From Candidatus Latescibacterota bacterium (GTDB lineage Bacteria; Krumholzibacteriota; Krumholzibacteriia; WVZY01), in the NCBI GenBank assembly GCA_011772205.1, contig WVZY01000016.1, positions 21,634-85,633 on the forward strand: 64,000 nt of DNA. Direction: 5' to 3'. The notes under the pieces were generated by a model. The model was not told the DNA's origin and searched no databases. It was given only the letters and a program-made list of their open reading frames with translations. How positions within the stretch are numbered: position 1 is the stretch's first letter; every line of letters begins with the position of its first letter. The translations under genes were made by a program, and so were the position numbers. Shown here in pieces: positions 2,184 through 57,925 of this stretch.

Positions 2184-2333
2184 AATGACTACCTCCTAAC
2201 GCTCATGCGCTTCCTTTCTGATAAGTGCCGAATCGTTATGCTTGAGCACTGGATTGTGGGATCACGATAGAAGTATATCATATAATTAACGATATCCAAA
2301 GGACAAAGGTCGCCGCCGATCCCCATTCTTCCC

Positions 2334-3224: not shown

Positions 3225-3334
3225 TTGGACCTCCGCTTCTTGAACGCTGAGAACGAGGAGCGTGAATGAGACACGCAGCATCTAAGGTTTTTCAAGCCGG
3301 CCTCCCATTTCACGCCGCTACAGATGATTTACTT

Positions 3335-27502: not shown

Positions 27503-27513
27503 GTGGTTCTCCC

Positions 27514-34458: not shown

Positions 34459-34461
34459 ACG

Positions 34462-35250: not shown

Positions 35251-35257
35251 GGTCATT

Positions 35258-36421: not shown

Positions 36422-36580
36422 GCGATTTAGCAGAGGGAGGTTGACAAACTGCCTGAAGTGGCATAGCCTGAAGCTTCATATTAGCCAGCAAACGAGACAT
36501 TCTAAATAGGAAGAGGAGAATCACACAAACGTAAGGCCCCGTTGTGGGGCTGGTAAACGCTGATCCAAGGAGGAGGCACT

Positions 36581-37786: not shown

Positions 37787-37840
37787 CCGCCCGGCGACAA
37801 TATCAGCCGGCTGACTGTTTGCGGATCAGGAGGATGAAGA

Positions 37841-38923: not shown

Positions 38924-39044
38924 TGCCGGTGGACTCATCCCGAGAGTCCACTCGGAGGCAGCCTGAAACGCCTCGAGGGAAACAAAGCGCGAAAAGCAAT
39001 ACCGTAGCAGCTGATTGCTGTCATCGGGAAAACGATCGAAAAAA

Positions 39045-39086
39045 CCGGCAGCGGCTCCAGCAACCTGGAGCACTGCCGGTTTGCTT
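39045..39086. terminator. Bidirectional rho-independent terminator between convergent dsrB and the 39108 membrane-protein gene
   Basis: AAAAA-CCGGCAGCGGCTCCAG-CAAC-CTGGAGCACTGCCGG-TTTGCTT. A long GC-rich stem is flanked by an A-run and a T-run. Confidence 0.65.
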
Positions 39087-39107
39087 ATTACGCGCGGGCC
39101 TTTACTC

Positions 39108-39551
39108 TCAGTGCCCGCCCGAAATGAGGCCGCTCGCCGCTAAGCAAAGCACCAGAACCTCGAGCAGGGCGATAACTACGTATATCTTGTCCTTCTTTTT
39201 TATCAAAACGGGAACAATGGCTATGTAGCATACGATCGTGAGGCCGGCCAGTATGGCTATTCCGATGAAGTTGAGGAGGTCACCGCGTCCCACCATCATA
39301 ATCCATCCCCATCCACCCGGGCAGCCGGACGCCTGAAGGTAGTCCGCGACGTTCATTGACCAGTATTGGGAGAGCGTACCCATCGGAAGGCACGGATCGA
39401 CCGCTCCGGAGACGTAAACGATAAACGTGATGAACAATACCAACAAGCCAATATACATGCCCTTGGCCAGAATACTCGCATACAGCTCCTGCTCCTCTAG
39501 CTTGATTTTGTAATCGGGTTCGATTTCAAGTTCTTCATTATCTATTTCCAT
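39108..39551 (-). CDS. Small polytopic membrane protein (possible DUF1634-like partner of the TauE permease)
   Basis: The internal start ATG 39551 (GAGGAG upstream) gives MEIDNEELEIEPDYKIKLEEQELYASILAKGMYIGLLVLFITFIVYVSG. There are 3-4 hydrophobic helices. It lies 40 nt downstream of the TauE gene. The family assignment is tentative. Confidence 0.5.
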   Translation of the reverse strand: MEIDNEELEIEPDYKIKLEEQELYASILAKGMYIGLLVLFITFIVYVSGAVDPCLPMGTLSQYWSMNVADYLQASGCPGGWGWIMMVGRGDLLNFIGIAILAGLTIVCYIAIVPVLIKKKDKIYVVIALLEVLVLCLAASGLISGGH

Positions 39552-39591
39552 GGTCTTGATCGCTCCTCGTGAACCAGTCAGTTTGACATGG

Positions 39592-40605
39592 CTACAAATG
39601 ATCCACAAGCGCCGATGCCTCGGACATGGCGTGGTGAGGTTGTTCAACGCTATTGATCGATGTGATTCCCTTGTGCACCGCTTTGAATCCCGCGAATGCC
39701 AGAACCAAAATCACCATCCATCGAATGATCGTGGGTTTGGAGATCCTCAAAAGGCGAACGCCCACAAACGACCCGAGCATAATGCCCACCAGCGAAGGCA
39801 CGACCATCAAAGGAATCACGCAGCCTCTGTTCATGTAGATCCATGCGGCCGAGGTATCAGTGATGGACAGAAGAAACTTGCTCGTGGCCACGCTGGTCTT
39901 CAAGGGAGCCCCCATGACGAGATTCAGCACGGGCACGTTGGCCCATCCGGCACCAAGTCCGAACATACCCGCCATAACGCCTATGATCGTGAAGAGACAC
40001 AGGCCGAGTGGCGTCCGGTGGATTTTCCATTCGATGATTTGTCCCGTGCTCTCTTCCCTGTACACGCCGTAAATCTTCAAAGTTCTGGAGAGCGTGTCTG
40101 CCTGGGGAACATCCGGGATGGTCGACTTCTTCGCCACAAACATCAGCACACAGATTCCGAGGATGGTTGTCCCCAGGCAGATCTGAACGACATGGGTCGG
40201 CAGCGCAAGTCCGATCATGGCGCCGACGATGGCGCAGGTGGAGGCGATGAGCGCCACGGGGAGAGCCAGCCTCAAACTGGCCAGTCTGGTTTTCAGTAAA
40301 CCGGGTCCGGCGGCCAAGGCACCTGAGAGCGCCACCAGCAGACCGGTCGCACGAACGAAGTCCAGGTGAAAAGGAAAGAACCCGCTTATGATGGGCACAA
40401 AGAGAACGCCGCCACCAACTCCGGCAAGTACGGCCACGACACCCATGACGAAGGTAACCACGAACAAGATCAATGGCCAAATCCACCAAGGCGCGCCATC
40501 AGCAGCAGGTGCCATTGATCCGGCAGCACCGCCAGCTTGAAGAGGACCCGCCACCGGAGCGATCAATAGAAGCCCAAGAAGCACAGCGTTTCCAAACTTG
40601 CCCAT
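39592..40605 (-). CDS. TauE/SafE-family (DUF81) anion permease
   Basis: 337 aa. Signal-like N-terminus, then VLAGVGGGVLFVPIISGF and IIGVMAGMFGLGAGWANVPVLNLVMG, the duplicated 4-TM module typical of the family. Confidence 0.8.
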   Translation of the reverse strand: MGKFGNAVLLGLLLIAPVAGPLQAGGAAGSMAPAADGAPWWIWPLILFVVTFVMGVVAVLAGVGGGVLFVPIISGFFPFHLDFVRATGLLVALSGALAAGPGLLKTRLASLRLALPVALIASTCAIVGAMIGLALPTHVVQICLGTTILGICVLMFVAKKSTIPDVPQADTLSRTLKIYGVYREESTGQIIEWKIHRTPLGLCLFTIIGVMAGMFGLGAGWANVPVLNLVMGAPLKTSVATSKFLLSITDTSAAWIYMNRGCVIPLMVVPSLVGIMLGSFVGVRLLRISKPTIIRWMVILVLAFAGFKAVHKGITSINSVEQPHHAMSEASALVDHL

Positions 40606-40626: not shown

Positions 40627-41022
40627 CTATGCGATGATTTCCAGGTCCATCGCCGGCGGATTGGTCAATGTCCCGTGAATGGGGCACGCTTCAGCAATGC
40701 GCCGAATGATCGGCTTTTTATCTTCGGGAACGTCCCGGGGAATCTCGAGGTCGATCGTTATAGCACCCACGCGCTTGGGATTATCGGCGAGTTCAAAGGT
40801 GAGGCTCGCCGACACTTCGCCGTCGTGATATCCGTGCTTGTCGCAGTAGCGCTGAACCATCATCGCAATGCAAGCTCCGAGGGAACCTACAAGCAATTCA
40901 GAAGGCGACAGGCCCTGATCCCGGCCGCCGTCGTCCTCCAACATATCGCTGATTGCCTGATGCCCTCGAACCTGAATCGCGAATTCCAGGCCGCTCTTGC
41001 GCGTGATACTAATGAGGTCCAT
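40627..41022 (-). CDS. OsmC/Ohr-family protein
   Basis: 131 aa. Contains GRDQGLSPSELLVGSLGACIAMMV and IAEACPIHGTL, the two conserved Cys-containing motifs of OsmC-like proteins. Confidence 0.85.
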   Translation of the reverse strand: MDLISITRKSGLEFAIQVRGHQAISDMLEDDGGRDQGLSPSELLVGSLGACIAMMVQRYCDKHGYHDGEVSASLTFELADNPKRVGAITIDLEIPRDVPEDKKPIIRRIAEACPIHGTLTNPPAMDLEIIA

Positions 41023-41068: not shown

Positions 41069-42298
41069 TTACTTCTTTTCGCCTTCGCCCGTAGCGAAAC
41101 CATGGAGCTTTATATCGACTTTCTTCTCGAGACCCTGATAGTAGTCCTGCAGGATTGTTAGAACCTCGGGCCGGCTGAAGTCGGCTGGTACCTCGCCACC
41201 TTCGGACAGCGTCTTGCGCAGCATTGTACCGCTGAGGAGCAGACGGTCCTCCTTGCCGTGCGGGCAGGTCTTCATTGAGGCCATGCCACGACACTTGAAG
41301 CAGTAGAAGGTCCAATCGATCTTGAGCGGCTGGCACTCCAGCGCGTCTTTGGGGATCTCTTCAAAGATCTTTTGCGCATCGAAAGGACCGTAATAGTCGC
41401 CTACTCCCGCATGATCGCGGCCAACGATCAGGTGACTGCAGCCGTAGTTCTGGCGGAAAACTGCATGAAGCAGCGCTTCGCGTGGCCCGCCATAGCGCAT
41501 CTCCAAAGGATAACCTCCCTGGATCACCGAATCCTTAAGGAAGTAATTATCCACCAACACGTCGATGCATTTGACCCGGACATCGGCAGGGATGTCGCCG
41601 GCTTTCAGCTTGCCCAAGAGCTGATGGATGTACAGGCCGTCGAGTATCTCGAGAGCAATCTTGGCCAAGTATTCATGTGAGCGGTGCATGGGATTACGCA
41701 GCTGCAGGGCCGCTACAGTGCTCCATCCCTTTTCCTCGAACATTTTGCGCGCTTCCGCCGGACGTTGGTAGATGCCCGCAAATTCCTCGGGGAAGTAGCT
41801 CTCGCTGATTACTTTGATGGGGCCCGCAAGGTTGACATCCTTCTGAGACATCACCTTGGCAACGCCCGGATGCTCGGTATCGGTGGTCCTGAAGACCTCT
41901 CGGCATTCCAATTCCTTGTCAATGGCGTACTTCTTGGTGACGGTCATGGTGGCAATGGGATCCAGGCTCTCCTCGTCAATAAGCACGACCTCCTCATTAT
42001 CTTTGATTGCATTTGCATCTTCTTTGGTCGCTGATACTGTCACCGGGATCGGCCAGAAGGTACCGTCTTTGAGTTTCATGTCCCGGCAGACGCCCTTCCA
42101 ATCCTCATCGCACATAAAACCTCCCAGTGGCGTGAACGCGCCGATGCCCATCATGATTGCATCACCCGTCTCACGGGACGTAATCGGAACCTTTCGCAGC
42201 CCTTCGGCTTTCTTCTTCTCCTCGGACAGCTCCTTTCCCTCCAGCAGGAGCGGCTTGAGCTTTTTGTCCTTACCGTGTGGTTTCACTAACTTGCTCAT
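41069..42298 (-). CDS. sat: Sulfate adenylyltransferase (ATP sulfurylase)
   Basis: Start ATG 42298 (AAGGAGG upstream) gives [21 protein letters not shown]. Motifs [13 protein letters not shown] and VGRDHAGVG. Confidence 0.93.
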
Positions 42299-42404
42299 TG
42301 TGTCTGTGCCTCCTTCCATGAAGACTCTCGTCAATCGCTAGACCACATAACATTGACTTTCCTTTTTCTCAATAAAGGAATCCTCTGTGGAAAAGCATCT
42401 ATGG

Positions 42405-43562
42405 TTATTGCTCTGCCGACTCCACGGCTTCTTCCCTGCCGGAATATCTGGCGTGCACGAGCGCCACTGTCCGGTAGACCATGTGCGCGAACCGGGAGAA
42501 CGGCAGATAGATCAATAGAGCAAACACCACCACCAGGTGGACGAAATAGACCGGATATGCTACGGATGCGATATTCACGAAGCGCAGAATTTCCGTGACA
42601 ATTCCCGTGATGATCACGGCGTAAAGAATCCAGATAAACGTCCAATCATTATAGGTGCTGATTTCTGTATCTCGTTGCTTCCTAGCTCGTTCGTAAATGA
42701 TCCAAGTGACGCCGACGAGCATTGCTAGCGTACTCACGTTGCCGAAAATTTTGAGTGGATGAAACAGGGGGAGCGGGTAGTAATGAAAGACATATTCGCT
42801 AATCACGACGGCAATAGTAGTCAGGAACAGACCGGCGAAGCCGTAGAAGGTCAGCAGGTGTGATATATACCGGTTCTTGTTTTCAGTGCAGTCCCGGAAC
42901 TTGGTGTGGGTCAGGATGTCTTTCACCGCGCCTACGATGCCGGTTCCTACGCTGCTGGTGCTGGCCGTTGTTGAGCTTTGGTTGAAACTTTGCCTGGAAA
43001 TCCGGCTGTTGAGATCCTTCCAGAAGCGCGACACGCCGACCAAGCAAGCAACGATCATGAGAGCAACGAACGAGCCGAAGAATATTTGAAGCGGCAAATG
43101 CGCGAAGAAACGCCCGTATTCCACATCGCCCGGAGGTGGATTGAGAGTTCCGAGCCCTGCTAGCACTGCGAGTATGAGTACAGCCGGGATGCCCAGGAGC
43201 AGCGGGAGAAACGCCGGTTTGCCGAGAGCTTTGCCCATGAATCGGGGAAATGAGTAATTGCGGATGGTATAATCCCGCACGGCCGCGAGAACGTCGCTCG
43301 GCGCAGCACTCCTTGGACAAGTAACGTTGCAGTCGCCGCAGCGATGACACAACCAGACATCGGGATCGCCGATGAGCTTGTCCTTGAGACCCCACTGCGC
43401 CCAGATCATTTCTTTGCGGGGAAACGGATGCCGATCTGGAGAAAGCGTGCAGGAGATCGAGCAGGTGGCGCACTGGAAACACTGCTTCAGACTCTCGCCG
43501 CCCAGGTCGATGATTTCCCGTACAAACTCCCTGTCCGGTTTTACTAGATAGGCGTCCGGCAT
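42405..43562 (-). CDS. qmoC: QmoC (HdrC-like Fe-S domain fused to an HdrE-like membrane cytochrome b domain)
   Basis: Contains CFQCATCSISC and CHRCGDCNVTCPR, followed by about 6 TM helices. The start could be ATG 43562 or TTG 43574. It lies 3-15 nt after qmoB. Confidence 0.85.
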   Translation of the reverse strand: MPDAYLVKPDREFVREIIDLGGESLKQCFQCATCSISCTLSPDRHPFPRKEMIWAQWGLKDKLIGDPDVWLCHRCGDCNVTCPRSAAPSDVLAAVRDYTIRNYSFPRFMGKALGKPAFLPLLLGIPAVLILAVLAGLGTLNPPPGDVEYGRFFAHLPLQIFFGSFVALMIVACLVGVSRFWKDLNSRISRQSFNQSSTTASTSSVGTGIVGAVKDILTHTKFRDCTENKNRYISHLLTFYGFAGLFLTTIAVVISEYVFHYYPLPLFHPLKIFGNVSTLAMLVGVTWIIYERARKQRDTEISTYNDWTFIWILYAVIITGIVTEILRFVNIASVAYPVYFVHLVVVFALLIYLPFSRFAHMVYRTVALVHARYSGREEAVESAEQ

Positions 43563-43577
43563 GCTTCCCACCAACTC

Positions 43578-45833
43578 CTAAAGACCCTTGAACGGATTCG
43601 GACCCACCTCATCTATTTGCTCGGCGAACTCATCTATGATTTGCTGCAGTCTGCCGTACTCGGAGATGGATATCTCCTCCACGCGGATCCGCTCCGATTC
43701 GAGAACGAGCTGTTCCAGCTTCTCCTGTATGTTTTCGCCGCGCGTCCCCATTAATTCGCTGCCGCGAATGAAGTGACACTGATAATCGTCGCCCGATTTG
43801 CAGCCGATGAGCAATATGCCGTCATATCCCCGCGAAAGCGCATCGCTGATCCAGACCACGTTCACCGATCCAAGGCAACGGACCGGGATAAAACGAATGT
43901 ACGGAGAATAACGAAGGCGCTTGATCCCAATCGTATCCAGAGCTGGATAGGCGTCGTTCTCGCAGATGAGGCCCAGCAAGCGTGGTTTTTCTTCATCTTC
44001 ATCGGGAACTTCAACGGCTTTGATCATGGATGAAAGGATTTCGATGGAATAGTCGGCAAAATTGACGATGCGTTCCGGACAGGATCCTAGACAGATACCG
44101 CAGCGACGGCAACGGAAGGGATTGGGCTGGGGCGTACCCTCGGCATCTTCGTTTAACGTTCCGAACGGGCATTCCATCGTGCAGCGCTTGCACTGCGTGC
44201 AGCGCTGCATGAAGAAGTCGGGGATCGACCGGTCCTCCCAGCGAGGGTGAACGGCCGCGCCCTGCGACGATAACTCCACGCATTGGATGGCTTTCATCGC
44301 CGCACCTGCAGCGTCCTCCCGGCACGCGTCAGTATCGTTCGGTGCACGCATGCATCCAGCAGCATAAATACCCGTGCGGCGGGTTTCGTACGGAAAACAG
44401 ATAAAATGGGAGTCGGGAAAATCGTACTTGAGAGCGGGTAAATCAGGTCCTTGTCTGTAATCGAGGTTCAGGATTTCAGTTCCCTCATGGTGCGCGAGTT
44501 TTACGACCGTTTCCTTCGCCGCATCGAGCTTGGCTCCCTCTTCGCCTTGTGCTATCAGCTCACGAGCGCTTTTCAATGCGCGAATCGCCTCACCATCCGC
44601 CGCCACCGGGACCATGCCCGTGGCCAGCACGACGAGGTCGGCATCCACCTGGATATGCGGCTCTATGAGCGTGTTCTCCACGTCGACTCGGAGACGGTCG
44701 CCATCAATCGGCTCGACGCCTATCACGTCGCCCTTGGTGAGAAAGATGTCCGTGTTTTCCTGCACGCGGCGGTAAAAATCCTCGTATTGCCCGGGTGAAC
44801 GGATGTCCTTGTACAGAATGTACACCTGCGCATCAGGATTGCGCTCCCGGATATGGATCGCCTGCTTGAGGGAGGTTCGACAGCAAACGGCCGAGCAGTA
44901 CGGCAGGTGTTCGGCATCGCGCGAGCCTGCGCATTGAATGAATGCAACACTCTTGGCTGGTTGGCCGTCGGAAGGCCTGGTGATGGTTCCGTTCCCTGCG
45001 AGTTCCTCCATCTGGACATTGGTAATCACATTTGGAGATCGGCCGTAACAAAGATGGCTCAACTTCGTTGCATCGTACGGCTTCCAACCCGTCGCCTGAA
45101 TAATGGCCCCAATACGAAATGTGACCGTCTTGCTCCCAACTTTGACGGAGACGTCGAATTGACCGGGCTGGCCACTGATTTTTTCAATTGCCGCCCCTTT
45201 AATAACATGGATTCGCTCGTGTCCTTCGACCTCTGCGACCATCTCCTGGCATTGCGTTGGCTGCGGATCTCGATAGGGAGGCCGTTTGGGAAACAGGCTG
45301 GTGAACTTCGTCAACCAGCCGCCGAGATGCTCTTCTTTTTCCACAAGCGTAACCTGGTAACCGGCCCTGGCGGCTTCCAGCGCCGCTGTCATACCGGTAA
45401 TCCCACCACCCACTACGAGAATGGTCTTGTTGACCTCTTCGAGATGGGGTTCCGGCCGCTTGGCTTTCCGTGCTCTTGCTATCCCAATGCGGAAATAGTC
45501 TTCCGCGAGCATCTGTGTATCTTCATTATTTGGCTCGTGGCACCACACAACGTGCTCCCGAAGATTAACCCGCTCGGTAAAGCACTTGTCAAATGTGAAA
45601 GCAGCCGTCATGGCCCGTGGCGAACACGCTGCAATCACAACAGCCTCTGCTCCCTCATTGACATCTTTCTTAATGGTTTCAATGCCTTCCGGCCCGCACA
45701 GCCAGGGATGGTCCCGGCAGATCTCGATTCCGGAATCATTGGTAGCCACGTTGCGCAGCGCTTCGATATCGAGCGACTTATCGATATCACAGCCGCGACA
45801 AATGTACGTTGCGATTCGCTTTTCTTCTCCCAC
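43578..45833 (-). CDS. qmoB: QmoB (HdrA-like flavoprotein with an MvhD-like C-terminal domain)
   Basis: 751 aa. FAD motif ILVVGGGITGMTAALEAARAG. Ferredoxin motifs CTQCKRCTMECPFG and CRRCGICLGSCP. The C-terminus reads LGLICENDAYPALD...LLIGCKSGDDYQCHF. Confidence 0.9.
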   Translation of the reverse strand: MGEEKRIATYICRGCDIDKSLDIEALRNVATNDSGIEICRDHPWLCGPEGIETIKKDVNEGAEAVVIAACSPRAMTAAFTFDKCFTERVNLREHVVWCHEPNNEDTQMLAEDYFRIGIARARKAKRPEPHLEEVNKTILVVGGGITGMTAALEAARAGYQVTLVEKEEHLGGWLTKFTSLFPKRPPYRDPQPTQCQEMVAEVEGHERIHVIKGAAIEKISGQPGQFDVSVKVGSKTVTFRIGAIIQATGWKPYDATKLSHLCYGRSPNVITNVQMEELAGNGTITRPSDGQPAKSVAFIQCAGSRDAEHLPYCSAVCCRTSLKQAIHIRERNPDAQVYILYKDIRSPGQYEDFYRRVQENTDIFLTKGDVIGVEPIDGDRLRVDVENTLIEPHIQVDADLVVLATGMVPVAADGEAIRALKSARELIAQGEEGAKLDAAKETVVKLAHHEGTEILNLDYRQGPDLPALKYDFPDSHFICFPYETRRTGIYAAGCMRAPNDTDACREDAAGAAMKAIQCVELSSQGAAVHPRWEDRSIPDFFMQRCTQCKRCTMECPFGTLNEDAEGTPQPNPFRCRRCGICLGSCPERIVNFADYSIEILSSMIKAVEVPDEDEEKPRLLGLICENDAYPALDTIGIKRLRYSPYIRFIPVRCLGSVNVVWISDALSRGYDGILLIGCKSGDDYQCHFIRGSELMGTRGENIQEKLEQLVLESERIRVEEISISEYGRLQQIIDEFAEQIDEVGPNPFKGL

Positions 45834-45842: not shown

Positions 45843-47102
45843 TCACACGCAATTTTGAAGAGCCTTCAACGCCGTGCCCGTGGCATCGCGCATACAGGCG
45901 GACACATCGACCGGCCGCTTCGCGCAGCCCGCGACTAATAATCCTGGCTGGTTCTGCTCGGCGACGAGGAACCCATGCTCGTCCCGAATCAATCCATTCG
46001 GCACATCGACGCCGACCTCTGATGGAACGATTCCCGTGGCCAGTACAACGAGGTTCACACGCTGGCTAACTCGTCCACCGCCGAAAACATCCTCCGCCTC
46101 GACCACCAAGTCCTGGGTCGCGGGGTCCTCTTCGATCTTGGCGACCTTGCCCTTTACTATTGACAGCTTCTCGTCCTCCTGCCGGGCGGCATAGAAATCC
46201 TCCAACCGCCCTGGTGCTCTCACATCGATATAAAAAATGAAAATTTGAGTTTCCGGATACTGCTCTCGTATGTATGTCGCCTGCTTCAGTGAAGCCAGGC
46301 AGCACACTCCTGAACAGTGCTTCAGATAGTTCTCATCCCGCGAGCCGGCGCATTGAACGAAGGCGACGCTATCGATCTCCTTGCCGTCGGACGGCCTCGT
46401 AATGCGTCCCTCAGTCGGCCCGTTTGCAGCCGCCAGCCTTTCCATAATGCTGTTTGTGATGACGTTCGAGTACTGGCCGAATCCGAGATTTTCGATCTGC
46501 GCAGCATCATAGGGCTGCCACCCAGTGGCGAATACAACCGCACCAACCTCGACCTCTTCCGTGCGAGGCTTTTCCTCCAGATCGACGGCATTGTACTGGC
46601 AGGCCTCGACACACTTTGAACATGAAGTCCCCTCGCACACTCCCCCATCGATCACGAAGCGCTGGGGGTAAACTGCCTCGAATGGAAGATAAATCGCTTT
46701 CGTCTTGTCCAGGCCATAGTTGAAAACGTTCGACCGCTCGACCGGACACACATCGACGCACGCCCCGCAGGCCGTGCAGTTCTCGTTAACATGGCGGGGA
46801 TAATGCTTGATCGTCGCTCGGTAGTTCCCAGGCTCGCCAACAATCTTCTCGACCTCAGCAAGGGTATGGCATTGTATGCGACCGTTCGCGCGCAAGCGCC
46901 GCAAACTGATCTCCAGGCCACACATCGGCGGGCAGAGCTTGGGAAAGTACTTGTTCGATTGGGCAACGCGGCCGCCCAAGTATGCATTCTTTTCGACCAG
47001 AACAATACTGCATCCCGCCTCCGCAGCCTCGATGGCCACGGTGATACCGCTTATCCCGCCCCCGATGACGAGAATCTTGCCCTGTTTGCCGTTTCCGCTC
47101 AT
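45843..47102 (-). CDS. qmoA: QmoA (HdrA-like flavoprotein)
   Basis: 419 aa. Contains KILVIGGGISGITVAIEAAEAG and CTACGACVDVCP...CSKCVEACQYNA. It is followed by qmoB after 9 nt. Confidence 0.9.
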   Translation of the reverse strand: MSGNGKQGKILVIGGGISGITVAIEAAEAGCSIVLVEKNAYLGGRVAQSNKYFPKLCPPMCGLEISLRRLRANGRIQCHTLAEVEKIVGEPGNYRATIKHYPRHVNENCTACGACVDVCPVERSNVFNYGLDKTKAIYLPFEAVYPQRFVIDGGVCEGTSCSKCVEACQYNAVDLEEKPRTEEVEVGAVVFATGWQPYDAAQIENLGFGQYSNVITNSIMERLAAANGPTEGRITRPSDGKEIDSVAFVQCAGSRDENYLKHCSGVCCLASLKQATYIREQYPETQIFIFYIDVRAPGRLEDFYAARQEDEKLSIVKGKVAKIEEDPATQDLVVEAEDVFGGGRVSQRVNLVVLATGIVPSEVGVDVPNGLIRDEHGFLVAEQNQPGLLVAGCAKRPVDVSACMRDATGTALKALQNCV

Positions 47103-47995
47103 TACTTCTCCTCTTCGGGGCCCTCCACCGACTCCTTTTCGAAGAGCTTTTTCTTTTCGAGCGTCCCTTTGAACGCCTCGATGACCTCTGATTTCACTTT
47201 AACAGTCTTCTCGCCGAAAATACTGAACTGCAGCCAGAGAAACGCGAAACGCAGGAGCGTTTCGTCGTTGTAACTCATTTCATCGACGAAATCCTCGTCC
47301 ACCTCGAATCGTTGCAACAGCGTGCTACCGAATACGAATTCCCGGAACTTATCCAAGTCGTAGCAGGCGGTAAAAAACATGTGCATCTTCTCGGGAGAGA
47401 GGACCCCTCCATCATCGAAGAACTTGTGAAGGGTCAATTCCTTGAATCCTTCGCCCCACTCGTCGTACTCGCTGACGCCCTGATCATCCAGCCACTGTCC
47501 GACGGTCCACTTCGTTGGCTCTTCGAAGCCCTCACACCCTTCTTCCTGCAAAAGGAAGTAGAACCGCTCGCCGCGCCATCCGTCCGGCGTGTCCTTTTGC
47601 GCCGCCAGCCCCAAGGGATACATGCGGCAGGGCCACGGCCGATCCGAATAGATGCTGCACCCACCCTCCGACAGAAACGGACACGTTTTGGCTTCATCGT
47701 CGTTCATGCGCAGCATGACGACCGGCGTTTTCATTTCCTTGTGGATGGGCATGAGGGTGTATTGCTTGAGGAATTCGCTCGATTTCATCTCGAGCCGCTT
47801 CCTCATGCGCAGAACGTCGTAAGGGGACAGGAAGATGTTGACGTCGCTACAGCACTTGTTGAAACACGAAATGCCGGGGTGGCAGGAAAACGTGAAGGTG
47901 TCTTCTGGACCTAGCCGGGGATAGTCCTTCAAGATTTTCTCTTGAAGCTGCTCTTGCGGATCCTTTGGAAAGGGGGAGCGCTTCTCTTCGCTCAT
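47102..47995 (-). CDS. YkgJ/UPF0153-like CxxCxxCC cysteine-cluster protein, coupled to qmoA
   Basis: 297 aa. Contains FSCHPGISCFNKCCSDVNIFLSPYDV and CPFLSEGGCSIYSDRPWPCRMYP. Its TAA stop overlaps the qmoA ATG by 1 nt (TAATG). Confidence 0.7.
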   Translation of the reverse strand: MSEEKRSPFPKDPQEQLQEKILKDYPRLGPEDTFTFSCHPGISCFNKCCSDVNIFLSPYDVLRMRKRLEMKSSEFLKQYTLMPIHKEMKTPVVMLRMNDDEAKTCPFLSEGGCSIYSDRPWPCRMYPLGLAAQKDTPDGWRGERFYFLLQEEGCEGFEEPTKWTVGQWLDDQGVSEYDEWGEGFKELTLHKFFDDGGVLSPEKMHMFFTACYDLDKFREFVFGSTLLQRFEVDEDFVDEMSYNDETLLRFAFLWLQFSIFGEKTVKVKSEVIEAFKGTLEKKKLFEKESVEGPEEEK

Positions 47996-48276
47996 TCGCC
48001 GCCTCCCTCGTCATCCCCCACGATCATCTCTCGCGCCGCGGCGTCCGACCAGACCGGAAGTGGTAATGAGGCGCCGGTGGTTGGATTTACCGCATACCGG
48101 TATGAAGCCTCCTGATTATATTGTTCCTTCATCCAAACCCATCCCCTCTTGTAATAGGAACAGTTATCATTGAAGCAAACGAAGAAGAATTCCTCGCTCC
48201 AGGTCGCGTCTTCTGGTACACGCCACTTCTGGAGACGGGATTTACAATGCGGGCACGTTCTGGGTATATCTGCCAT
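47992..48276 (-). CDS. Small zinc-ribbon-like protein (94 aa), coupled to the YkgJ-like gene
   Basis: Starts MADIPRTCPHCKSRLQKWRVPEDATWSEEFFFVCFNDNCSYY (CxxC...CxxxxC). GAGGAA RBS. ATGA overlap with the downstream gene. Confidence 0.55.
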   Translation of the reverse strand: MADIPRTCPHCKSRLQKWRVPEDATWSEEFFFVCFNDNCSYYKRGWVWMKEQYNQEASYRYAVNPTTGASLPLPVWSDAAAREMIVGDDEGGGE

Positions 48277-48447
48277 CAGGTTCCTCGGTCGATCAGCGGT
48301 CTTTCGAGCTGGCCTTGGAACCGTTCATCCCTTAGCCGCGCAAAACAAAAACGCCTTTCGGAGACGAGGGAGCACAATAGGCGTCGAGAACCGGGATCTC
48401 CGGACGCCGCAAAGCGACGCCCGGAAATCCCAAGAATCCACACATCA

Positions 48448-50340
48448 TCATTGTGAGATGTATTTCACGGGCCTCTTTATCATCTTCCACTCGCCGGTGT
48501 CTTTGTCGTAAGTGCAATTGCAGAAGGCAAGCCAGTTCTCGTTATCCATTTTGGGCTTATCGGCCCGGAAGTAATAACCCGGCCAGCGCGTTTCCTCACG
48601 GAAGAGGATGGAATGCACGTGCGCCTCCGCCTGATACATACGGTGGATATTCTCCCAGCACCGCATCAACTCGTGCAGGCTCTCCGCCGCAAGGTTTTTG
48701 GAGTCTTCCTTGAGGTACCCCAACAGCTCCATGCCCTTCTCGAGCAGCTTGTCGCTTGTCTTGAACTGGCTGGACACACCACCCGCATACTCGTCCATTA
48801 TCTTCTGAAGCCTGTACATGAACTGTTTGGGACGGATATAATTCGGGTTGATGTCAGGGTCTGTTGTCTTGTCCTTGTGCTCCTGGAACGTGACCAAAGG
48901 CTTCAAGATCTCTGCCTTCAGGGCATCGACCTGCGCCTGATCCACCTTGGGAGGAACGTTGTTGTCGACGATGTAGGAGATAGCCGCCTTGGCGGCGATA
49001 CGCCCCTCAGCATGCGAGCCGGAAGAGAACTTGTGGCTCGATGCTCCTGATGCATCGCCCGCAGCGAACATACCGTAGATCGTCGTCATGTGCGGGTAGC
49101 CCCAGAAATACTCGTCCCTCGTGGCATCCGTCTGCAGGTCCTCCGGACCGGAAACCCATGCACCTGATGCGCCGGAGTGGGACCCAATAAAGTAAGGATC
49201 ACACGCCATGATCTCGGAAGGCTTCACCTCAGGTTCGACGTTCGTTGCCGCCCACAGGATCGCTTGCGAGATCGTCATATCGAGGAAGTCCTCCCATGCC
49301 TCTGCCTCGAGCTCCTTGAGCTTCTTCTTGGCTGCCTTTCCATCAGGCGCTTCACCCGCGATTCGTTTGATCGCATCGGAGGTCTGCATGTAAATCGGAC
49401 TCTTGCCGTCCATTACGTCCAGCATCATCAGCCAGTTACGGATGTTGGCGGGACGCGGCTTCACCTTGCCGTAAGGCTCCCACTTGTCGAGCTCTGCAGC
49501 GTTATCTTGCATGTAGTTGCCGCCTCGCGCATTGGTTGCGATCGACTTGAACAGAAGGAACCATGCGCCCACCGGACCGTACGCATCCTTGAAACGGACC
49601 GGGATGAAGCGGACCTCTTGGCACGTCATCTCGGCGCCGGCGTAGATCGTAAAGAATGCGCTCGCGCCCGAATTGAATGGAGGATACCAGGAGCGGCCGA
49701 AGCCCTCGCCAGTCGAACGCGGCTTGAACACGTGAACCGCGCCGCCCATGGCCACCAGCGTAGCCTTGGCTTTGAACACATATACCTTATTTTCTCTGAT
49801 GCTGAATCCGATCGCGCCGACGCACTTGTCGCCGTCCATCAACGGGTGCGTGATGAAGACGCGCTCAAATATCTCTCCGTTCGCCTCCACCAGGGCGTTC
49901 TTGGCAGCCTCCGCAATGACGACTTTGTAAGACTCACCGTTAATCATCAACTGCCAACGACCCTCGTGGACGTAATTGCCCTCTGCATCCTTCCAGATCG
50001 GAAGGCCCCACTTCTCGAACAGGTGGACCGTCGAGTCCACATGCCGCGCAATGCTGGCTACCAGGTCTTCGCGGGTGATGCCCATGAGATCGTTCCGAAC
50101 GTACTCGACGTAGTCTTCTAGGGTGTTGTTTCCGCTGTTCAAGTCCACGTACTGGTTGATCGCCGAAAGACCCATCGCGACCGCGCCCGAACGATCCACT
50201 GCTGCCTTGTCAACCAAGGTGACTTTCAATCCGTGTTTCTTGGCCCAGTAAGCCGCTTCCACTGCCGCACCGCAAGCGGCCATCCCGCCGCCGCAGATCA
50301 GCAGATCTGTTTCCACCGTTACGACTTCGAAATCAGCCAT
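48448..50340 (-). CDS. aprA: Adenylylsulfate (APS) reductase alpha subunit
   Basis: 630 aa. Starts MADFEVVTVETDLLICGGGMAACGAAVEAAYWAKKHGLKVTLVDKA (FAD motif), with the characteristic length and C-terminus. Confidence 0.95.
   Translation of the reverse strand: MADFEVVTVETDLLICGGGMAACGAAVEAAYWAKKHGLKVTLVDKAAVDRSGAVAMGLSAINQYVDLNSGNNTLEDYVEYVRNDLMGITREDLVASIARHVDSTVHLFEKWGLPIWKDAEGNYVHEGRWQLMINGESYKVVIAEAAKNALVEANGEIFERVFITHPLMDGDKCVGAIGFSIRENKVYVFKAKATLVAMGGAVHVFKPRSTGEGFGRSWYPPFNSGASAFFTIYAGAEMTCQEVRFIPVRFKDAYGPVGAWFLLFKSIATNARGGNYMQDNAAELDKWEPYGKVKPRPANIRNWLMMLDVMDGKSPIYMQTSDAIKRIAGEAPDGKAAKKKLKELEAEAWEDFLDMTISQAILWAATNVEPEVKPSEIMACDPYFIGSHSGASGAWVSGPEDLQTDATRDEYFWGYPHMTTIYGMFAAGDASGASSHKFSSGSHAEGRIAAKAAISYIVDNNVPPKVDQAQVDALKAEILKPLVTFQEHKDKTTDPDINPNYIRPKQFMYRLQKIMDEYAGGVSSQFKTSDKLLEKGMELLGYLKEDSKNLAAESLHELMRCWENIHRMYQAEAHVHSILFREETRWPGYYFRADKPKMDNENWLAFCNCTYDKDTGEWKMIKRPVKYISQ
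48451..48470. promoter_or_regulatory. Rex-box-like inverted repeat TGTGAG-N6-TTCACG at the 3' end of aprA
   Basis: TTGTGAGATGTATTTCACGG matches 10 of 12 positions of the TGTGAA-N6-TTCACA core as I recall it. It lies within the last codons of aprA, about 175 nt upstream of the Zn-ribbon/YkgJ/qmo genes. Confidence 0.3.
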
Positions 50341-50400: not shown

Positions 50401-50871
50401 TTACTTAAGCTTGGGGATCTTGTCCATTTTGACCGGGCCCTTCTCGGTGTTCAGGCCATCAGGCTCGCACATTAAAGTTGGGCTCTTCAGATCATCGTCG
50501 CCGGTCGGATAATGGTCGAACGGCTGCGCTTGGCCTTCCGCGACGCCCCTGCGGATGGGGAACTTGAAGCGTTTCGGCTTGATTTCCTTGCTGCGGAATT
50601 GGATGGTCCACAAGATATCCTCGGAACTACGCAACGCCGTTACACTCGCCCCCAGCGGAACGAAATCGGCATAACCGCGGACTTCGACCGCTTGCGTCGG
50701 ACAAATCTTGACGCAGTTGTAGCATTCCCAGCACATCTCCGGATCCTGGTTGTAAGCCTTGTCGGTCTTCTTATCGAGCACCATCAAGTCGTTCGGACAA
50801 ATGTGCTGACATGCTGTTTTGTCCAGGTCCTTGCATCCGTCACACTTGTCCGGAATCACAAAACTTGGCAT
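50401..50871 (-). CDS. aprB: Adenylylsulfate (APS) reductase beta subunit
   Basis: Starts MPSFVIPDKCDGCKDLDKTACQHICPNDLM and contains CWECYNCVKICPTQA, followed by the long C-terminal tail. Confidence 0.93.
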   Translation of the reverse strand: MPSFVIPDKCDGCKDLDKTACQHICPNDLMVLDKKTDKAYNQDPEMCWECYNCVKICPTQAVEVRGYADFVPLGASVTALRSSEDILWTIQFRSKEIKPKRFKFPIRRGVAEGQAQPFDHYPTGDDDLKSPTLMCEPDGLNTEKGPVKMDKIPKLK

Positions 50872-50873: not shown

Positions 50874-51530
50874 TCAGCCTCCTTTCTCACTGCCGCTTCC
50901 CTTCCGTGCTTTGATCGCGTAGGAGAGCAGGCTTAAGCTTGAAAACATACGTGCTTCTACCAAAGAAACACCGTTCGGAGTCCGCACGTGAACGCAGGAC
51001 ATATTCAGCACACCCTGCACACCGGCGGATACCAATTCATCCGCTACCGTCTGGGCCGCTTTGGCGGGTACTGCAATAACTCCAATCTCTACATTCTTCT
51101 CGCGCACCGCCCTGGGCAGTTCATCTATGCTTTGCACGATTAGCTTTCCGACCTTCCTGCCGATGACACGGCGACTTGAATCGAACAATCCGCAGATATT
51201 AAAGCCCTGTCGGGAAAACTCCTCATGCTGGGCCAGCGCCCGGCCCAGATTGCCAGCGCCGACAATTACTACGTTGCTGCCCTGATCTCTTCCGATCAGT
51301 GTGAGAATGGATGACTCCAGATCTTCAATCTTGTATCCCCGCTTGGCCGTACCGCTGATGTCCAGCCAGGAGAGATCTTGGCGGACTGTTGAGCTGGTTA
51401 CTTCCAGCGCTTCGGCCAGTTCGAGCGAGGATATCCACTCCTGTCCCTGTTCGATTTGCATGCGAACATATTGCAGGTAGTGTGATAGCCGACGTATGAC
51501 AGGAATCGGTACTTGAGTCTTATGGTTCAT
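50874..51530 (-). CDS. rex: Redox-sensing transcriptional repressor Rex
   Basis: 218 aa. The winged helix reads IPVIRRLSHYLQYV...SSLELAEALEVTSSTVRQDLS. The Rossmann motif is NVVIVGAGNLGRAL. The stop lies 2 nt before the aprB ATG. Confidence 0.88.
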   Translation of the reverse strand: MNHKTQVPIPVIRRLSHYLQYVRMQIEQGQEWISSLELAEALEVTSSTVRQDLSWLDISGTAKRGYKIEDLESSILTLIGRDQGSNVVIVGAGNLGRALAQHEEFSRQGFNICGLFDSSRRVIGRKVGKLIVQSIDELPRAVREKNVEIGVIAVPAKAAQTVADELVSAGVQGVLNMSCVHVRTPNGVSLVEARMFSSLSLLSYAIKARKGSGSEKGG

Positions 51531-51969: not shown

Positions 51970-52287
51970 ATGCCATATGCCGATTTAGGTGGTAAGAACC
52001 TGGAAATAGATGAGGACGGATTCATTCAAGATCCCGATGCATGGGACGAAGCAGTTGCCAAGGCACTCGCGGAAACCGAGGGCGTTGCAGACATGAGCGA
52101 CGAACATTGGAAAGTCGTGAATTACCTCCGCGAGTATTATCTCGAGTACAGCATGGCGCCGATGATTCGGAAACTCTGCAAGGAAACCGGTTTCCCGCTT
52201 AAGAAAATCTACGAACTTTTCCCCAGTGGCCCCGCAAAAGGAGCTTGCAAGGTAGCGGGGCTTCCAAAGCCGACCGGCTGCGTATAG
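51970..52287 (+). CDS. dsrC: DsrC (TusE/DsrC family, with both C-terminal cysteines)
   Basis: The internal start of ORF 51808..52287 (AAGGAG upstream) gives MPYADLGGKNLEIDEDGFIQDPDAWDEAVAKALA. The C-terminus is GACKVAGLPKPTGCV. Confidence 0.93.
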   Translation: MPYADLGGKNLEIDEDGFIQDPDAWDEAVAKALAETEGVADMSDEHWKVVNYLREYYLEYSMAPMIRKLCKETGFPLKKIYELFPSGPAKGACKVAGLPKPTGCV

Positions 52288-52330
52288 TTCGGAAAACTTC
52301 TTTTCAAGGCATCAGTAGGAAAGACGAGAT

Positions 52331-52359
52331 AGTCCCTCGAGGAGCTTGTTCGAGGGACT
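52331..52359. terminator. Perfect 10-bp hairpin AGTCCCTCGA-N9-TCGAGGGACT between convergent dsrC and the CbiA/DsrN-like gene
   Basis: Read from the sequence. There is no strong T-tract, so it may be only a stem-loop. Confidence 0.4.
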
Positions 52360-52364
52360 GCGTT

Positions 52365-53909
52365 CTATGCAGGACCGCTTCGTCTGCGTAACATACCCGC
52401 CTGCACCAGTGACCGCGCCCAGTTCCCCACACCCAACGCGTGAATGTGACAGTACGTGGCAAGCGTGTTTTTGCGGCAGATACCGTCATGTTCGCCGTCG
52501 ATTCCATAGCCACGCTGTACCCGGAAAGCAAAAGACAGTTTCTTTTCATCCAAGTCGAGCACCCGCGAATAATGGAATTCGTGTCCGCGAAACGAATCCC
52601 CCACCGGAAAATAGGGATTGGAGCGCGTCACTTCCATGATCGCATACCCATGCCCTTGCGGTCTGGTATCAAACCCGAAGACCACCGGCAGCGCTCCCGC
52701 CATGGGATACGTGTTTTCTCCCATAATGAGGCTCCGGCCGAGATAAACAGCCCCGGCACATTCGGCGTAAACCGGCATACCTGCTTCTACGGCTGCCGCA
52801 ACGGCGTGCCGGAAATCGACGTTCGCTGCAAGCTCCTCCGCAAACGTCTCCGGAAACCCCCCACCTATGTAGATCGCATCCGCTTCTGGAAGCTTCCTGT
52901 CGCGCAGCGGAGATGATTCGATGAGGCGTCCACCTTCTCGTTCCAGCGCTTCAAGGTTCTCGGGATAGTAAAATTGAAATGCTTCGTCACGAAAGACGCC
53001 GATTCGAACCTGGTGCGAATCCGGCTCCGGTTTTATCGTATCTTTTCCCCCAGGCTTGCCGACCTTGCCCGTTTCCGCGGAGGGCACCTCGTGAGCTGGC
53101 AGTTCCTTCTCAGCGAGGTCGCCACGCGTCCCCCCAGCACTAGCTTCTGGCTCGCTTACCAGCGGCGGGGCCGTTCGGGCAATATTCATGAGGGCATCCA
53201 GATCGATGTGTTCTTCAACGACACGCGCGGCTGCCTGGACCGCTCCGGGCACTTCACCGTGCTCTTGAGGTGGCACCAAACCGAGATGCCTTTCTGGAAA
53301 TGGGCATTCGGCAAGCCGGGGGATCGCGCCCAGAACGGGTAGGCCGCAGTACGTTTGGATGACGTCGCGAAGAACGGACTCATGCCTGCGACCGGCCACC
53401 TGGTTCAGAACGACGCCTTTGATATGTACGGCGGGGTCGAACCGCTGACACCCCAGTACCATCGCACCCAGCGTTCGCGTGGTCTTGGAGCAATCGCATA
53501 CGAGGATTACCGGTGCTTTGAGCAGCTTGGCCAGTTCGGCGGCACTGTAAGTGCCCCCGGCGTCCATTCCGTCGAATAGACCTCGATTTCCTTCGATAAC
53601 TGCTAGATCACTCCCTCTTGCAGTCCGAACAAAAGAATCGAATACGACATCTCTCTCGATCATAAAGAGGTCCAAGTTCCGGCAGGGATGTCCCGCGGCA
53701 GCAGCGAGCCACGCCGCATCGATATAGTCCGCTCCCTTTTTGTAAGGAGCGACGGCGAAGCCCAGGTTGCGCCATGCGGCGGTCAGTCCCACTGAGACAA
53801 GTGTTTTGCCTCCACTGCCGCGCAGCCCGGCAATCATGATTCGAGGTAATGGCAAGATGCGGGACTCTAGGTGCCCACGTGCTCGACTACCACCGCTGTC
53901 CCGTAACAT
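52365..53909 (-). CDS. dsrN: Cobyrinic acid a,c-diamide synthase family amidase, probably DsrN (sirohaem amidase)
   Basis: Contains [21 protein letters not shown] (P-loop) and a glutamine amidotransferase C-terminal half ([30 protein letters not shown]). Located next to dsrC. The start is uncertain: 53909 overlaps ybjQ, and the alternative is ATG 53837. Confidence 0.7.
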
Positions 53910-54211
53910 AATACTTCTGTCACTCCCTCCATCACTTCAGTAGCATCGTAGCGAATCCCGGTGACGGCATTTGCTCCCAGCTCTTCTGCATGGGTGATCA
54001 TCATGTCGAAGGCTTCTTTGCGTGTTTTCTCGCAAAGTTCAGTGAAGAGCGTAATATTGCCCCCAACTATTGTCTGCAATGAGGCTCCGATCTTGCCAAA
54101 GATCGAGCGCGACCGAACGGTAATGCCGCGAACGATACCGAGCGTTTTGATCACCCGATATCCATCGAGATGGAACGCTGTTGTTGTCATCGATACGTCA
54201 ATTGGCTTCAT
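53867..54211 (-). CDS. YbjQ/UPF0145-family protein
   Basis: 114 aa. Sequence [75 protein letters not shown]. Confidence 0.85.
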
Positions 54212-54322
54212 TTCTAACTCGCCTTTCTTGAGTCGTTAGGTGCACCTAACCTGAATCCGCCGGAAAATCGCAGCGATTTATCTTTTAAGGTGCTTGGTGC
54301 CAATTGCATTCAAATGAATGCA

Positions 54323-54436
54323 CATGTCTCGTTTGCCGCGAGGCGATCTCCGCAGCGCGCTATAACTTTAGACGCGCGCGAGGACCACGAGCCGAGGGGT
54401 AAACGAGACATGCGCAATGCTGGATCTTGATGGATT
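54323..54436. repeat. Copy B of the ~90-bp inverted-repeat-bounded element, with the 24-nt flank on its right
   Basis: Core 54323..54412 is about 92 percent identical to 5804..5893 in the same orientation. Flank 54413..54436 matches 21 of 24 positions of the reverse complement of 5780..5803. Confidence 0.7.
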
Positions 54437-54498
54437 CACGCTAAGTATTGGCATAAACGTTGCGATCTTTTAAGCCCCCTGCTTCCCGCCCTTGGCCG

Positions 54499-54852
54499 CT
54501 AGGATCTTTTTCGCTTCAGCCAGAAATCGAACGGTCGTCCGGGCACAAAGATATCCAGACCGCTCGACGGCCTGTCGAGCGGATTTTTGACGATATGTGC
54601 CTCGCCCCCGGCGATGTATGCTGCATCCCCTTCGTCGAGTACTTGTTCTCCGTCGTTGTCCGTTATGATACTGAGCTTGCCTTCCAGCACAACAAGAACT
54701 TGTACGTTAGGGTGTTCGTGGCGAGGGGAGGCATGCCCGGCAGGTTTGATGAAGTGTTCAACGGATATGTCATCTTCACTACACAGGCTCGAGCGTTTCC
54801 AATGCTTCTCGGGCTCATAACTCTCGGCTTTGCCGAAGCGGACAACTTTCAT
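54499..54852 (-). CDS. Cupin-domain protein
   Basis: 117 aa. Contains GHASPRHEHPNVQVLVVLEGKL and GDAAYIAGGEAHIV, the two cupin motifs. Confidence 0.75.
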   Translation of the reverse strand: MKVVRFGKAESYEPEKHWKRSSLCSEDDISVEHFIKPAGHASPRHEHPNVQVLVVLEGKLSIITDNDGEQVLDEGDAAYIAGGEAHIVKNPLDRPSSGLDIFVPGRPFDFWLKRKRS

Positions 54853-55005
54853 TACTTTTCTCCACTCTGGTGGTTGGCGCCCGCTGCCAACTGGCCGCGA
54901 TCACGCGCCAGCAGCTTTTGCTCATATAACCGCATTATCAATCCATTTGCTCGGCATTGTCATGCGCCGCTATTTCTTTTAATAATCTCAATGCTCGTTT
55001 ATACG

Positions 55006-57504: not shown

Positions 57505-57925
57505 GTATGGGACATCCCACCTTCATTTCTTTCCGGACATACAGCAGGTCCATCCAAGATAGCGAATTGACAACAGCCAATGGCTTTCCGTGAGCCATCT
57601 CAAAAGATCTCACGAAGTCAGTGAGCGGTACGTTACCTTGCTATATACTAAATGGCGTGGGCAAGCGGACAGTACGCACTCAATATTAGCATTTCTGGGG
57701 AAGTTTGCAATCGCGTCCAGAGGTGGAAAATCTGAGCATTCGGAAATACTAGAACACCCCGCTCGAGGCTGGAAGTTCCTCCGACGGCGGGGCACGCGTC
57801 GGCTTTCACTCGCTCAACGCTACTCCGAGGGCATGCACGCATGCATTGAGAATTGCCCATTCATCACCGTGCCAATTGCACACACGCATGCGCTGGTTGT
57901 TGTTTATTTGAAGCGTTGAGTTCCT

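Follow-up and report, generated by a model that had tools for sequence, protein, structure and literature searches.

It has long been an open question of sulfate respiration how adenosine 5'-phosphosulfate (APS) reductase exchanges electrons and whether QmoABC suffices as its partner. In the model organisms then known, Ramos et al. (2012) noted an absence of candidate partner genes alongside sat-aprBA-qmoABC. In contrast, the apr-qmo operon described here, which lies on a 64,000-nt stretch of a Candidatus Latescibacterota contig (the whole stretch is called the window in the following), contains two co-localised candidate partner genes. They encode a 94-amino-acid (aa) zinc-ribbon protein and a 297-aa YkgJ-type cysteine-cluster protein, here named Zn94 and Ykg297, and raise the question of what they do for APS reductase. 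Comparison with related loci revealed that Zn94 and Ykg297 form a conserved two-gene module, which is dedicated to the aprBA locus. The apr-qmo gene cluster itself is already known; what is new are the two conserved, uncharacterised accessory genes, the folds of which have no solved relatives. Zn94 and Ykg297 are likely to be unrecognised helpers of a key enzyme of the sulfur cycle.

Two genes between aprA and qmoA

The original prediction, which was made from the sequence alone, placed two open reading frames (ORFs) between aprA and qmoA. The ORF coordinates confirm this arrangement, and both ORFs are genuine conserved genes. The genes concerned, in the order of transcription, are:

50401..50871, minus strand: aprB, APS reductase beta subunit, 156 aa (TIGR02060, 181.7 bits, cut-off 135.65; PF12139)
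48448..50340, minus strand: aprA, APS reductase alpha subunit, 630 aa (TIGR02061, 886 bits)
47992..48276, minus strand: Zn94, acidic zinc-ribbon protein, 94 aa (PF04606, Ogr_Delta)
47102..47995, minus strand: Ykg297, acidic soluble protein of the YkgJ/CxxCxxCC type, 297 aa (PF03692)
45843..47102, minus strand: qmoA, HdrA-like flavoprotein, 419 aa (Pfam/NCBIfam)

A GAGGA Shine-Dalgarno sequence is located 6 nt ahead of the Zn94 start codon ATG. In the window, the stop codon of Zn94 and the start codon of Ykg297 overlap by 4 nt (ATGA), and the TAA stop of Ykg297 shares one base with the ATG of qmoA (TAATG). Both overlaps are exactly as predicted, and they are conserved: Zn94 and Ykg share 4 nt in 45 of 55 loci, and in 33 of 42 the end of Ykg runs into qmoA by 1, 4 or 8 nt. 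It had also been claimed that aprA is directly followed by qmoA in other sulfate reducers. This holds for Nitrospirae genomes, in which the locus tags of aprA and qmoA are adjacent (PMC5812927).

The constant neighbour of the pair

Which neighbour of the pair is constant emerged from two independent scans. The first one was seeded with Ykg297, covered one genome per GTDB species and yielded 51 loci, to which four contig look-ups were added; all were mapped with the proteins of the window. The genomes are labelled, among others, Gemmatimonadota, Planctomycetota/Phycisphaerae SG8-4, "delta proteobacterium", Desulfobacteraceae UBA2156 and Chitinivibrionia. Zn94 is directly followed by Ykg297 in every Ykg-seeded locus, and aprA lies directly upstream of the pair in 57 of the 58 informative loci, those of the seven distant members included (7/7). 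These distant members, which are 45-54% identical to P0241, the first sequence of the query profile, were looked up in Zixibacteria- and Omnitrophota-labelled metagenome-assembled genomes (MAGs) and on a 2.5-Mb contig. All seven are located directly after aprBA with a zinc-ribbon gene in between, which is present in L058 and L062 as well, though the gene callers missed it. The lone exception among the 58 informative loci, L009, has a 100-N assembly gap (L009 7550-7649) that abuts the zinc-ribbon gene, and is probably a scaffolding join and not a true exception. Unrelated TPR-type genes are found beyond this gap.

The second scan was seeded with Zn94 and covered metagenome contigs, which added 80 further loci. 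Here, aprA is located upstream in 57 of the 58 informative loci, the exception (L079) being a 1.5-kb contig with 0.9x coverage, and Ykg follows Zn94 in 74 of 74 loci, in two of them as split matches that result from assembly frameshifts. In total, about 140 related loci, all from MAGs and metagenomes of uncultured sulfur-cycling bacteria, carry the pair behind aprBA, a recurrence well beyond chance, and no Ykg family member was found away from aprBA among those examined.

The genes that follow the pair vary. Most Ykg-seeded loci run on into qmoABC-sat, and qmoA comes next after the pair in 34 of the 42 Zn94-seeded metagenome loci, the other eight being without it. The original prediction had staked its idea on the conservation of the two ORFs next to qmoA, and the idea survives. 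At eleven loci (L001, L019, L024, L025, L030, L036, L054, L057, L058, L060 and L062), qmoAB is absent and the pair is still located behind aprA. Three of these (L001, L019, L024) have the order sat-aprBA-Zn-Ykg, followed by a second Ykg paralog, which is 52-56% identical and keeps all cysteines (L001 8959-12391), a Nitrate_red_gam-type membrane protein and a Fer4_8/CCG protein (HdrED/DsrMK-like); a QmoC-like gene is positioned divergently upstream of sat. Another four (L025, L030, L036, L054) show the arrangement sat-aprBA-Zn-Ykg-TauE ... QmoC-like. In the loci of the distant members, the pair is followed by qmoABC in L056, L059 and L061, by dsrAB in L062 and by nothing related in L057, L058 and L060.

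Obligate co-occurrence with qmoABC, by which the pair would be taken for a part of QmoABC, is thus not seen at the locus level (8 of 42 metagenome loci plus the 11 loci named above). Instead, the pair shares the hallmark of the AprBA-associated class, a position directly downstream of aprBA across lineages. Since aprA is constant and qmoA follows in only about 80% of the loci, the invariant unit is aprB-aprA-[spacer]-Zn-Ykg, and the constant partner of the pair is aprBA, not qmoA. The proposed tie to qmoA therefore stands as far as the coupling is concerned, which is seen where qmoA follows, but has to be given up for the partnership as such, as the pair persists without adjacent qmoAB.

Conservation and selection

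Both proteins have many homologs: 1670 were scored for Ykg297 and at least 168 for Zn94 in the indexed database, and most of the top matches are 65-82% identical. In 55-56 related loci, Zn94 and Ykg297 differ by 0.49 and 0.47 differences per site, respectively, at the third codon position and by 0.12-0.21 at codon positions 1 and 2. At least half of the changed codons are synonymous, and QmoA shows the same pattern. The GC content at third codon positions (GC3) of both genes agrees with that of the adjoining genes. Zn94 and Ykg297 are real genes, which are under strong purifying selection. Across the loci, the median identity to the proteins of the window is 86% for AprA, 82% for AprB, 73% for Ykg297 and 69% for Zn94, followed by Sat (68%), QmoB (67%), QmoA (66%) and QmoC (42%). 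The median identities of Zn94 and Ykg297 are like those of QmoA and QmoB, and the pair is therefore constrained like a core subunit.

The carriers of the pair bear very mixed labels (Gemmatimonadota, Planctomycetota, Zixibacteria, Omnitrophota and others), while their AprA proteins are 73-91% identical. This would fit passenger genes, i.e., genes with an unrelated function such as general iron-sulfur (Fe-S) or zinc handling, which travel with a laterally transferred apr cassette. However, the pair stays linked to aprBA in about 140 loci, even at identities of only 45-50% and with various genes downstream; in addition, the strong purifying selection on the pair and the lack of any examined family member away from aprBA argue against mere passengers, and we consider this explanation very improbable.

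The spacer behind aprA and transcript levels

The pair is separated from aprA by a spacer, which is 84-331 nt long throughout the related loci and contains the following elements in the window:

48277..48447, minus strand: aprA-Zn94 spacer, 171 nt, between the two ORFs
48391..48433, minus strand: 20-bp perfect stem-loop directly 3' of aprA (folding of the 171-nt spacer)
48342..48366, minus strand: weak intrinsic-terminator-like hairpin with a T-run (CGTCTCCGAAAGGCG TTTTTGTTTT; consensus scan of the same spacer)

The spacer of the window folds with a minimum free energy of -76 kcal/mol (z = -3.63 against 200 shuffles). Of 54 related loci, 46 fold with z below -2 and 47 form a helix of at least 10 bp within the 90 nt next to the end of aprA, with differing sequences. 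Terminator-like sites in this region do not exceed the shuffle expectation; the hairpin with the T-run is therefore only suggestive, and the fold z-scores were relied on. No Rfam families were found in the window. The stem-loop behind aprA is probably an mRNA 3' end, a stabiliser, an attenuator or a partial terminator, which would set the level of aprBA above that of the downstream genes.

A sediment metatranscriptome, which was found through a related locus, contains contigs of at least 85% likeness with a word depth of about 100-3500 over aprBA and a sharp fall after aprA. Over the Ykg, qmoA and qmoB regions, the depth of these contigs is about 1-36, contig depth being a poor measure of expression. 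This agrees with the role proposed for the stem-loop, although only weakly. The sequence of the window itself was found in three DNA metagenome runs and in no RNA run. As the stem-loop is conserved and 84-331 nt separate the pair from aprA, Zn94 and Ykg297 are probably made at the level of Qmo, not at that of AprBA.

The remaining genes of the operon

Read on the minus strand, the ORFs of the window are arranged in the order rex, aprB, aprA, 171-nt spacer, Zn94, Ykg297, qmoA, qmoB, qmoC and sat. The genes not listed above are:

50874..51530, minus strand: rex-like redox-sensing repressor gene, adjoining aprB on the upstream side (PF06971, PF02629)
43578..45833, minus strand: qmoB, HdrA-like protein with MvhD/FlpD domain, 751 aa (PF02662, E = 6.6e-40; HdrA2-like)
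42405..43574, minus strand: qmoC, membrane subunit, 389 aa (NF038018, 438 bits, cut-off 300)
41069..42334, minus strand: sat, ATP sulfurylase, 421 aa (PF01747, E = 9e-87; PF14306)

The scores of AprA, AprB and QmoC exceed their trusted NCBIfam cut-offs. AprB matches the AprB of Archaeoglobus fulgidus (PDB 1JNR_B) with E = 1e-50, and AprA matches the A. fulgidus AprA (PDB 1JNR_A) with 777 bits over the full length, large insertions being absent. Both subunits align end to end with the enzymes of A. fulgidus and D. gigas (1JNR, 3GYX), and these alignments revealed no missing or extra AprA or AprB domains for which the pair could compensate. QmoA and QmoB are of ordinary size and domain content, with no domains added or lost. 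A rex-like gene is found upstream of aprB in 15 related loci.

The zinc-ribbon protein Zn94

Zn94 matches PF04606 with 38.1 bits (cut-off 26.3, E = 1.5e-9, residues 7-50), and so do 52 of 52 homologs; the 94-aa protein is indeed a four-cysteine zinc ribbon, as had been read from its motif (C8xxC11...C34x4C39). In the alignment of 52 sequences, the mean column identity is 67%, and C8, C11, C34, C39, five Trp residues and the C-terminal 'PVWSDxATREMIV' tail are invariant. The four cysteines presumably bind zinc. Zn94 has an isoelectric point (pI) of 4.93 and a net charge of about -4. It was confidently modelled by AlphaFold2, with a predicted local distance difference test score (pLDDT) of 82.6 and a predicted template modelling score (pTM) of 0.70. 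Searches against the PDB gave nothing significant with the profile and a best E of about 1 with Foldseek. No fold match was obtained in BFVD by Foldseek (best E 0.39, template modelling (TM) score below 0.35), and no PHROG family matched at E<=0.01.

The placement of Zn94 in Ogr_Delta by Pfam suggests a regulatory module, in which Zn94 would act as an Ogr/Delta-type transcription factor of the operon or the pair would modulate AprBA or Qmo allosterically or in a redox-dependent manner, similar to DsrD. A rex-type repressor gene is located upstream of aprB, so the operon is redox-regulated, and cysteine clusters that bind Fe-S are commonly redox sensors. That the pathway can include a small accessory protein is shown by DsrD (PMC10591310). 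However, only the four-Cys ribbon of Zn94 matches Ogr/Delta. Membership of this family beyond the ribbon was ruled out: phage Ogr-like proteins gave no PHROG or BFVD match, and the body of Zn94 is acidic and Trp-rich. Neither the prophage context nor the basic DNA- or RNA polymerase-binding character of this family was found: Zn94 resides in an apr-qmo operon and is acidic. Moreover, its gene is operon-internal and coupled to Ykg297, which is atypical of a transcription factor. A regulatory role of the module is thus unlikely.

The cysteine-cluster protein Ykg297

The 297-aa protein had been assigned to the YkgJ/UPF0153-type cysteine-cluster proteins, and PF03692 bears this out with 40.3 bits (cut-off 23, E = 5.1e-10, residues 43-129). 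The same family is matched by all homologs in an alignment of 85 Ykg297 sequences. Ykg297 consists of a cysteine domain (approximately residues 34-160) and a helical C-terminal domain (approximately residues 165-290), is soluble and has a pI of 4.8. Its cysteines follow the pattern C38-x5-C44-x3-C48C49 ... C105-x7-C113-x9-C123 ... C154. All eight are invariant in the 85-sequence alignment and 97-100% conserved among 116 family sequences, a set that includes members of 31-54% identity. Invariance in the 85 sequences extends to D60, R119, P120, W121, R124 and several aromatic residues. The confident AlphaFold2 model (pLDDT 83.2, pTM 0.76) shows an N-terminal domain with a metal-knuckle-like beta/loop structure and a helical C-terminal domain of about 130 residues. 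Against the PDB, the profile search found nothing significant and the best Foldseek match had an E of 0.73 and a TM score of about 0.1. For the C-terminal domain, the 85 homologs matched only PF03692 in Pfam at E<=1 and nothing in PHROGs. The subfamily comprises at least 3990 proteins at E<=1e-10, as judged from a profile of members that are 31-45% identical to one another.

The sole characterised relative of the cysteine domain is FliB. In Salmonella, the CX4CX3CC motif of FliB binds an oxygen-sensitive [4Fe-4S] cluster, which is needed for the S-adenosylmethionine (SAM)-dependent methylation of flagellin lysines (PMC8598068). By analogy to FliB, the eight invariant cysteines of Ykg297 may bind one or more Fe-S clusters, or Fe-S and zinc. 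Ykg297 was rejected as FliB itself: NF038110 was matched with 16.5 bits (cut-off 85), with residues 36-117 aligned to positions 7-85 of the 373-position model, and the flagellar context of FliB was absent, as every examined locus has an aprBA/qmo/sat/dsr context. The Ykg module was also found in P0373, a protein of 690 aa from the representative library, in which a radical-SAM domain (PF04055, residues 88-238) is fused to a complete Ykg module (residues 451-690). The module, located at the C-terminal side of the radical-SAM domain, shares 34% identity with Ykg297, and none of the eight cysteines is lost in it.

The homology of the cysteine domain to PF03692, in which the [4Fe-4S] SAM-dependent protein lysine methylase FliB falls, and the fusion in P0373 open a second possibility, a maturation or modification factor. 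As a [4Fe-4S] enzyme akin to FliB, which is possibly SAM-dependent, Ykg297 would modify, assemble or repair AprA or AprB in a catalytic and not a stoichiometric manner, with Zn94 serving as its adaptor, specificity subunit or substrate. This would suit a pair that tracks aprBA whichever electron-transfer genes come next, is preceded by a conserved hairpin and is apparently much less expressed than aprBA. Another maturation gene, dsrN, is present in the same compact island. However, the similarity to FliB is weak and restricted to the cysteine domain, and no SAM-binding motif or methyltransferase domain was detected in Ykg297 by the NCBIfam scan and the Pfam scan of the 85 homologs. In addition, the conservation equals that of the Qmo subunits, which is unusual for an assembly factor, and A. 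fulgidus and D. gigas have highly similar AprBA without the pair. We know of no such modification reported for the solved AprBA structures of A. fulgidus and D. gigas, which also counts against a maturation factor. Such a role is possible, albeit tentative.

A possible link between APS reductase and the membrane

Zn94 and Ykg297 very probably form a 1:1 pair. The reading that we favour, with a probability of roughly 0.35, is that of a redox adaptor: as an Fe-S/Zn heterodimer bound to AprBA, the pair would connect AprB with a quinol-oxidising module in the membrane. According to this model, Ykg297 would bind Fe-S (or Fe-S and zinc) and Zn94 zinc, thereby forming an acidic, soluble 1:1 heterodimer, which would be made at Qmo-like levels below those of AprBA. 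The heterodimer would dock on AprBA and link AprB to the quinol-oxidising membrane module of the respective organism. In the window, QmoABC would play this part; other lineages would use an HdrDE/DsrMK-like pair or a QmoC-type protein on its own.

Several features favour a redox adaptor: the usual location of the pair between aprBA and the genes for QmoABC, QmoC alone or HdrDE-like proteins, the translational coupling to a following qmoA, and a conservation as high as that of a subunit. A further reason lies in the electron route to AprBA, for which partner genes do not co-localise in the model organisms (Ramos et al. 2012). A more far-reaching form of this idea holds that the new Fe-S/Zn heterodimer physically bridges AprB and the membrane module as an unrecognised core component of the APS reductase system in many environmental sulfur-cycling bacteria and provides a QmoAB-independent route where qmoAB is not adjacent; this form is doubtful.

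Several observations weigh against the redox adaptor. The pair persists without adjacent qmoAB (L057, L060, L062), and the very similar AprBA of model organisms works without the pair, the AprA of the window matching that of A. fulgidus with 777 bits. Desulfovibrio, Archaeoglobus and Chlorobi, which are not known to carry Zn94 and Ykg297, have a functional AprBA-Qmo system. Furthermore, the cysteine pattern of Ykg297 is unlike that of an ordinary electron-transfer ferredoxin. FliB is an enzyme and not an electron carrier, and this, together with the radical-SAM fusion in P0373, points to SAM-type chemistry. Finally, no transcripts mapped to Zn94 or Ykg297 at a likeness of at least 96% in the sediment metatranscriptome, and its contigs are therefore transcripts of relatives. 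A maturation or modification factor comes close behind the redox adaptor and is nearly as likely.

The surrounding sulfur island

The window contains a compact dissimilatory-sulfur island, in which the regions 30755-40605 and 51970-59605 flank the apr-qmo-sat genes. The island comprises:

within the island, strand not stated: dsrMKJOP
36581-37786, strand not stated: dsrA
37841-38923, strand not stated: dsrB
51970-52287, strand not stated: dsrC
52365-53909, strand not stated: dsrN-like amidase gene
57926-59605, strand not stated: GltD/DsrL-like gene, NAD(P)-binding Fe-S flavoprotein

The region after dsrB (38923-39550) contains no convincing dsrD ORF. The organism is not necessarily a sulfate reducer of the classical kind and could instead oxidise or disproportionate sulfur.

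A 131-aa ORF is located just downstream of sat (40627-41022, minus strand), and the gene in the same place in L002 carries an OsmC domain (PF02566). TauE/SafE-type genes, the products of which resemble sulfite exporters, are found repeatedly in the vicinity of the apr cluster, and the window has two of them. The window and L001 also share a cytidylate-kinase-like gene. The TauE and cytidylate-kinase-like regions are located at 39592-40605, 26408-27724 and 27514-29028 of the window, 1-1602 of L001 and 8912-9943 of L025.

With respect to the history of the cassette, QmoC (42405-43574) and Rex (50874-51530) of the window show 79-82% identity to their counterparts in L017, a MAG from groundwater that bears the label Chitinivibrionia. 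To the other loci, the AprA, Ykg and QmoAB proteins of which are equally close, QmoC is only about 42% and Rex about 30% identical. That QmoC and Rex are close only to L017 suggests a mosaic cassette or a replacement of qmoC and rex. AprA is 73-91% identical among MAGs labelled Gemmatimonadota, Planctomycetota, Spirochaetales, Desulfobacterota, Chitinivibrionia and others, and this likeness across mixed labels points to a lateral transfer of the entire cassette, to mis-binning or to both.

Earlier reports and implications

The pair has been touched upon before. A passing remark by Thiel et al. (2019; PMC6338057) on Ignavibacteria-related MAGs mentions 'two conserved hypothetical genes' between aprA and qmoC, which are probably identical to Zn94 and Ykg297; no other relevant text was found. 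No functional description of either protein was found in the literature on YkgJ, COG0727 or zinc-ribbon proteins in connection with apr or qmo. The searchable text of the large comparative studies of Dsr, Apr and Qmo (PMC10504309, PMC10591310, PMC6018805) contains no mention of the pair.

The labels of the carriers include Gemmatimonadota, Planctomycetota SG8-4, Zixibacteria, Omnitrophota and Desulfobacterota UBA2156, and the pair could be used to recognise one type of apr cassette in genomes. If Ykg297 were a FliB-like modifying enzyme, the pair would stand for an unknown maturation step of a key biogeochemical enzyme. If the pair bridges AprB to a lone QmoC- or HdrDE-type protein, an alternative QmoAB-independent route of APS reduction or sulfite oxidation would exist.

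Comparison with known systems

Escherichia coli YkgJ (UPF0153, COG0727) is a short, single-domain protein of unknown function. Ykg297 shares the Pfam domain with YkgJ, and its homologs are annotated as 'YkgJ family cysteine cluster protein'. In contrast to YkgJ, Ykg297 has an additional conserved helical C-terminal domain of about 130 aa, and the examined members of its subfamily are all linked to apr. With FliB, Ykg297 has in common an N-terminal PF03692/YkgJ-type cysteine-rich domain with the motif C-x(4-5)-C-x3-CC and eight conserved cysteines (PMC8598068). The remainder of Ykg297, however, is unrelated to FliB, and the context is APS reductase in one case and flagella in the other.

Zn94 resembles phage P2 Ogr and P4 Delta in its four-cysteine ribbon of similar spacing, but differs from them in its conserved acidic, Trp-rich body and C-terminal tail and in its location in a non-phage operon. 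As small accessory genes inside sulfate-reduction operons, dsrD, the product of which is an allosteric activator of DsrAB, and the hypothetical gene DVU0851 of D. vulgaris, which is located distal to qmoC, are comparable to the pair. DsrD differs in its position and no homology was detected; DVU0851 is set apart by position.

The closest parallel in gene order is found with QmoABC, QmoAB-HdrBC and AprM, which take the same place, directly after aprBA, and are retained together with it in different lineages. Zn94 and Ykg297 are unrelated to these proteins in sequence, and they are soluble and devoid of a flavin or heme domain. In most loci, the pair comes in addition to QmoABC.

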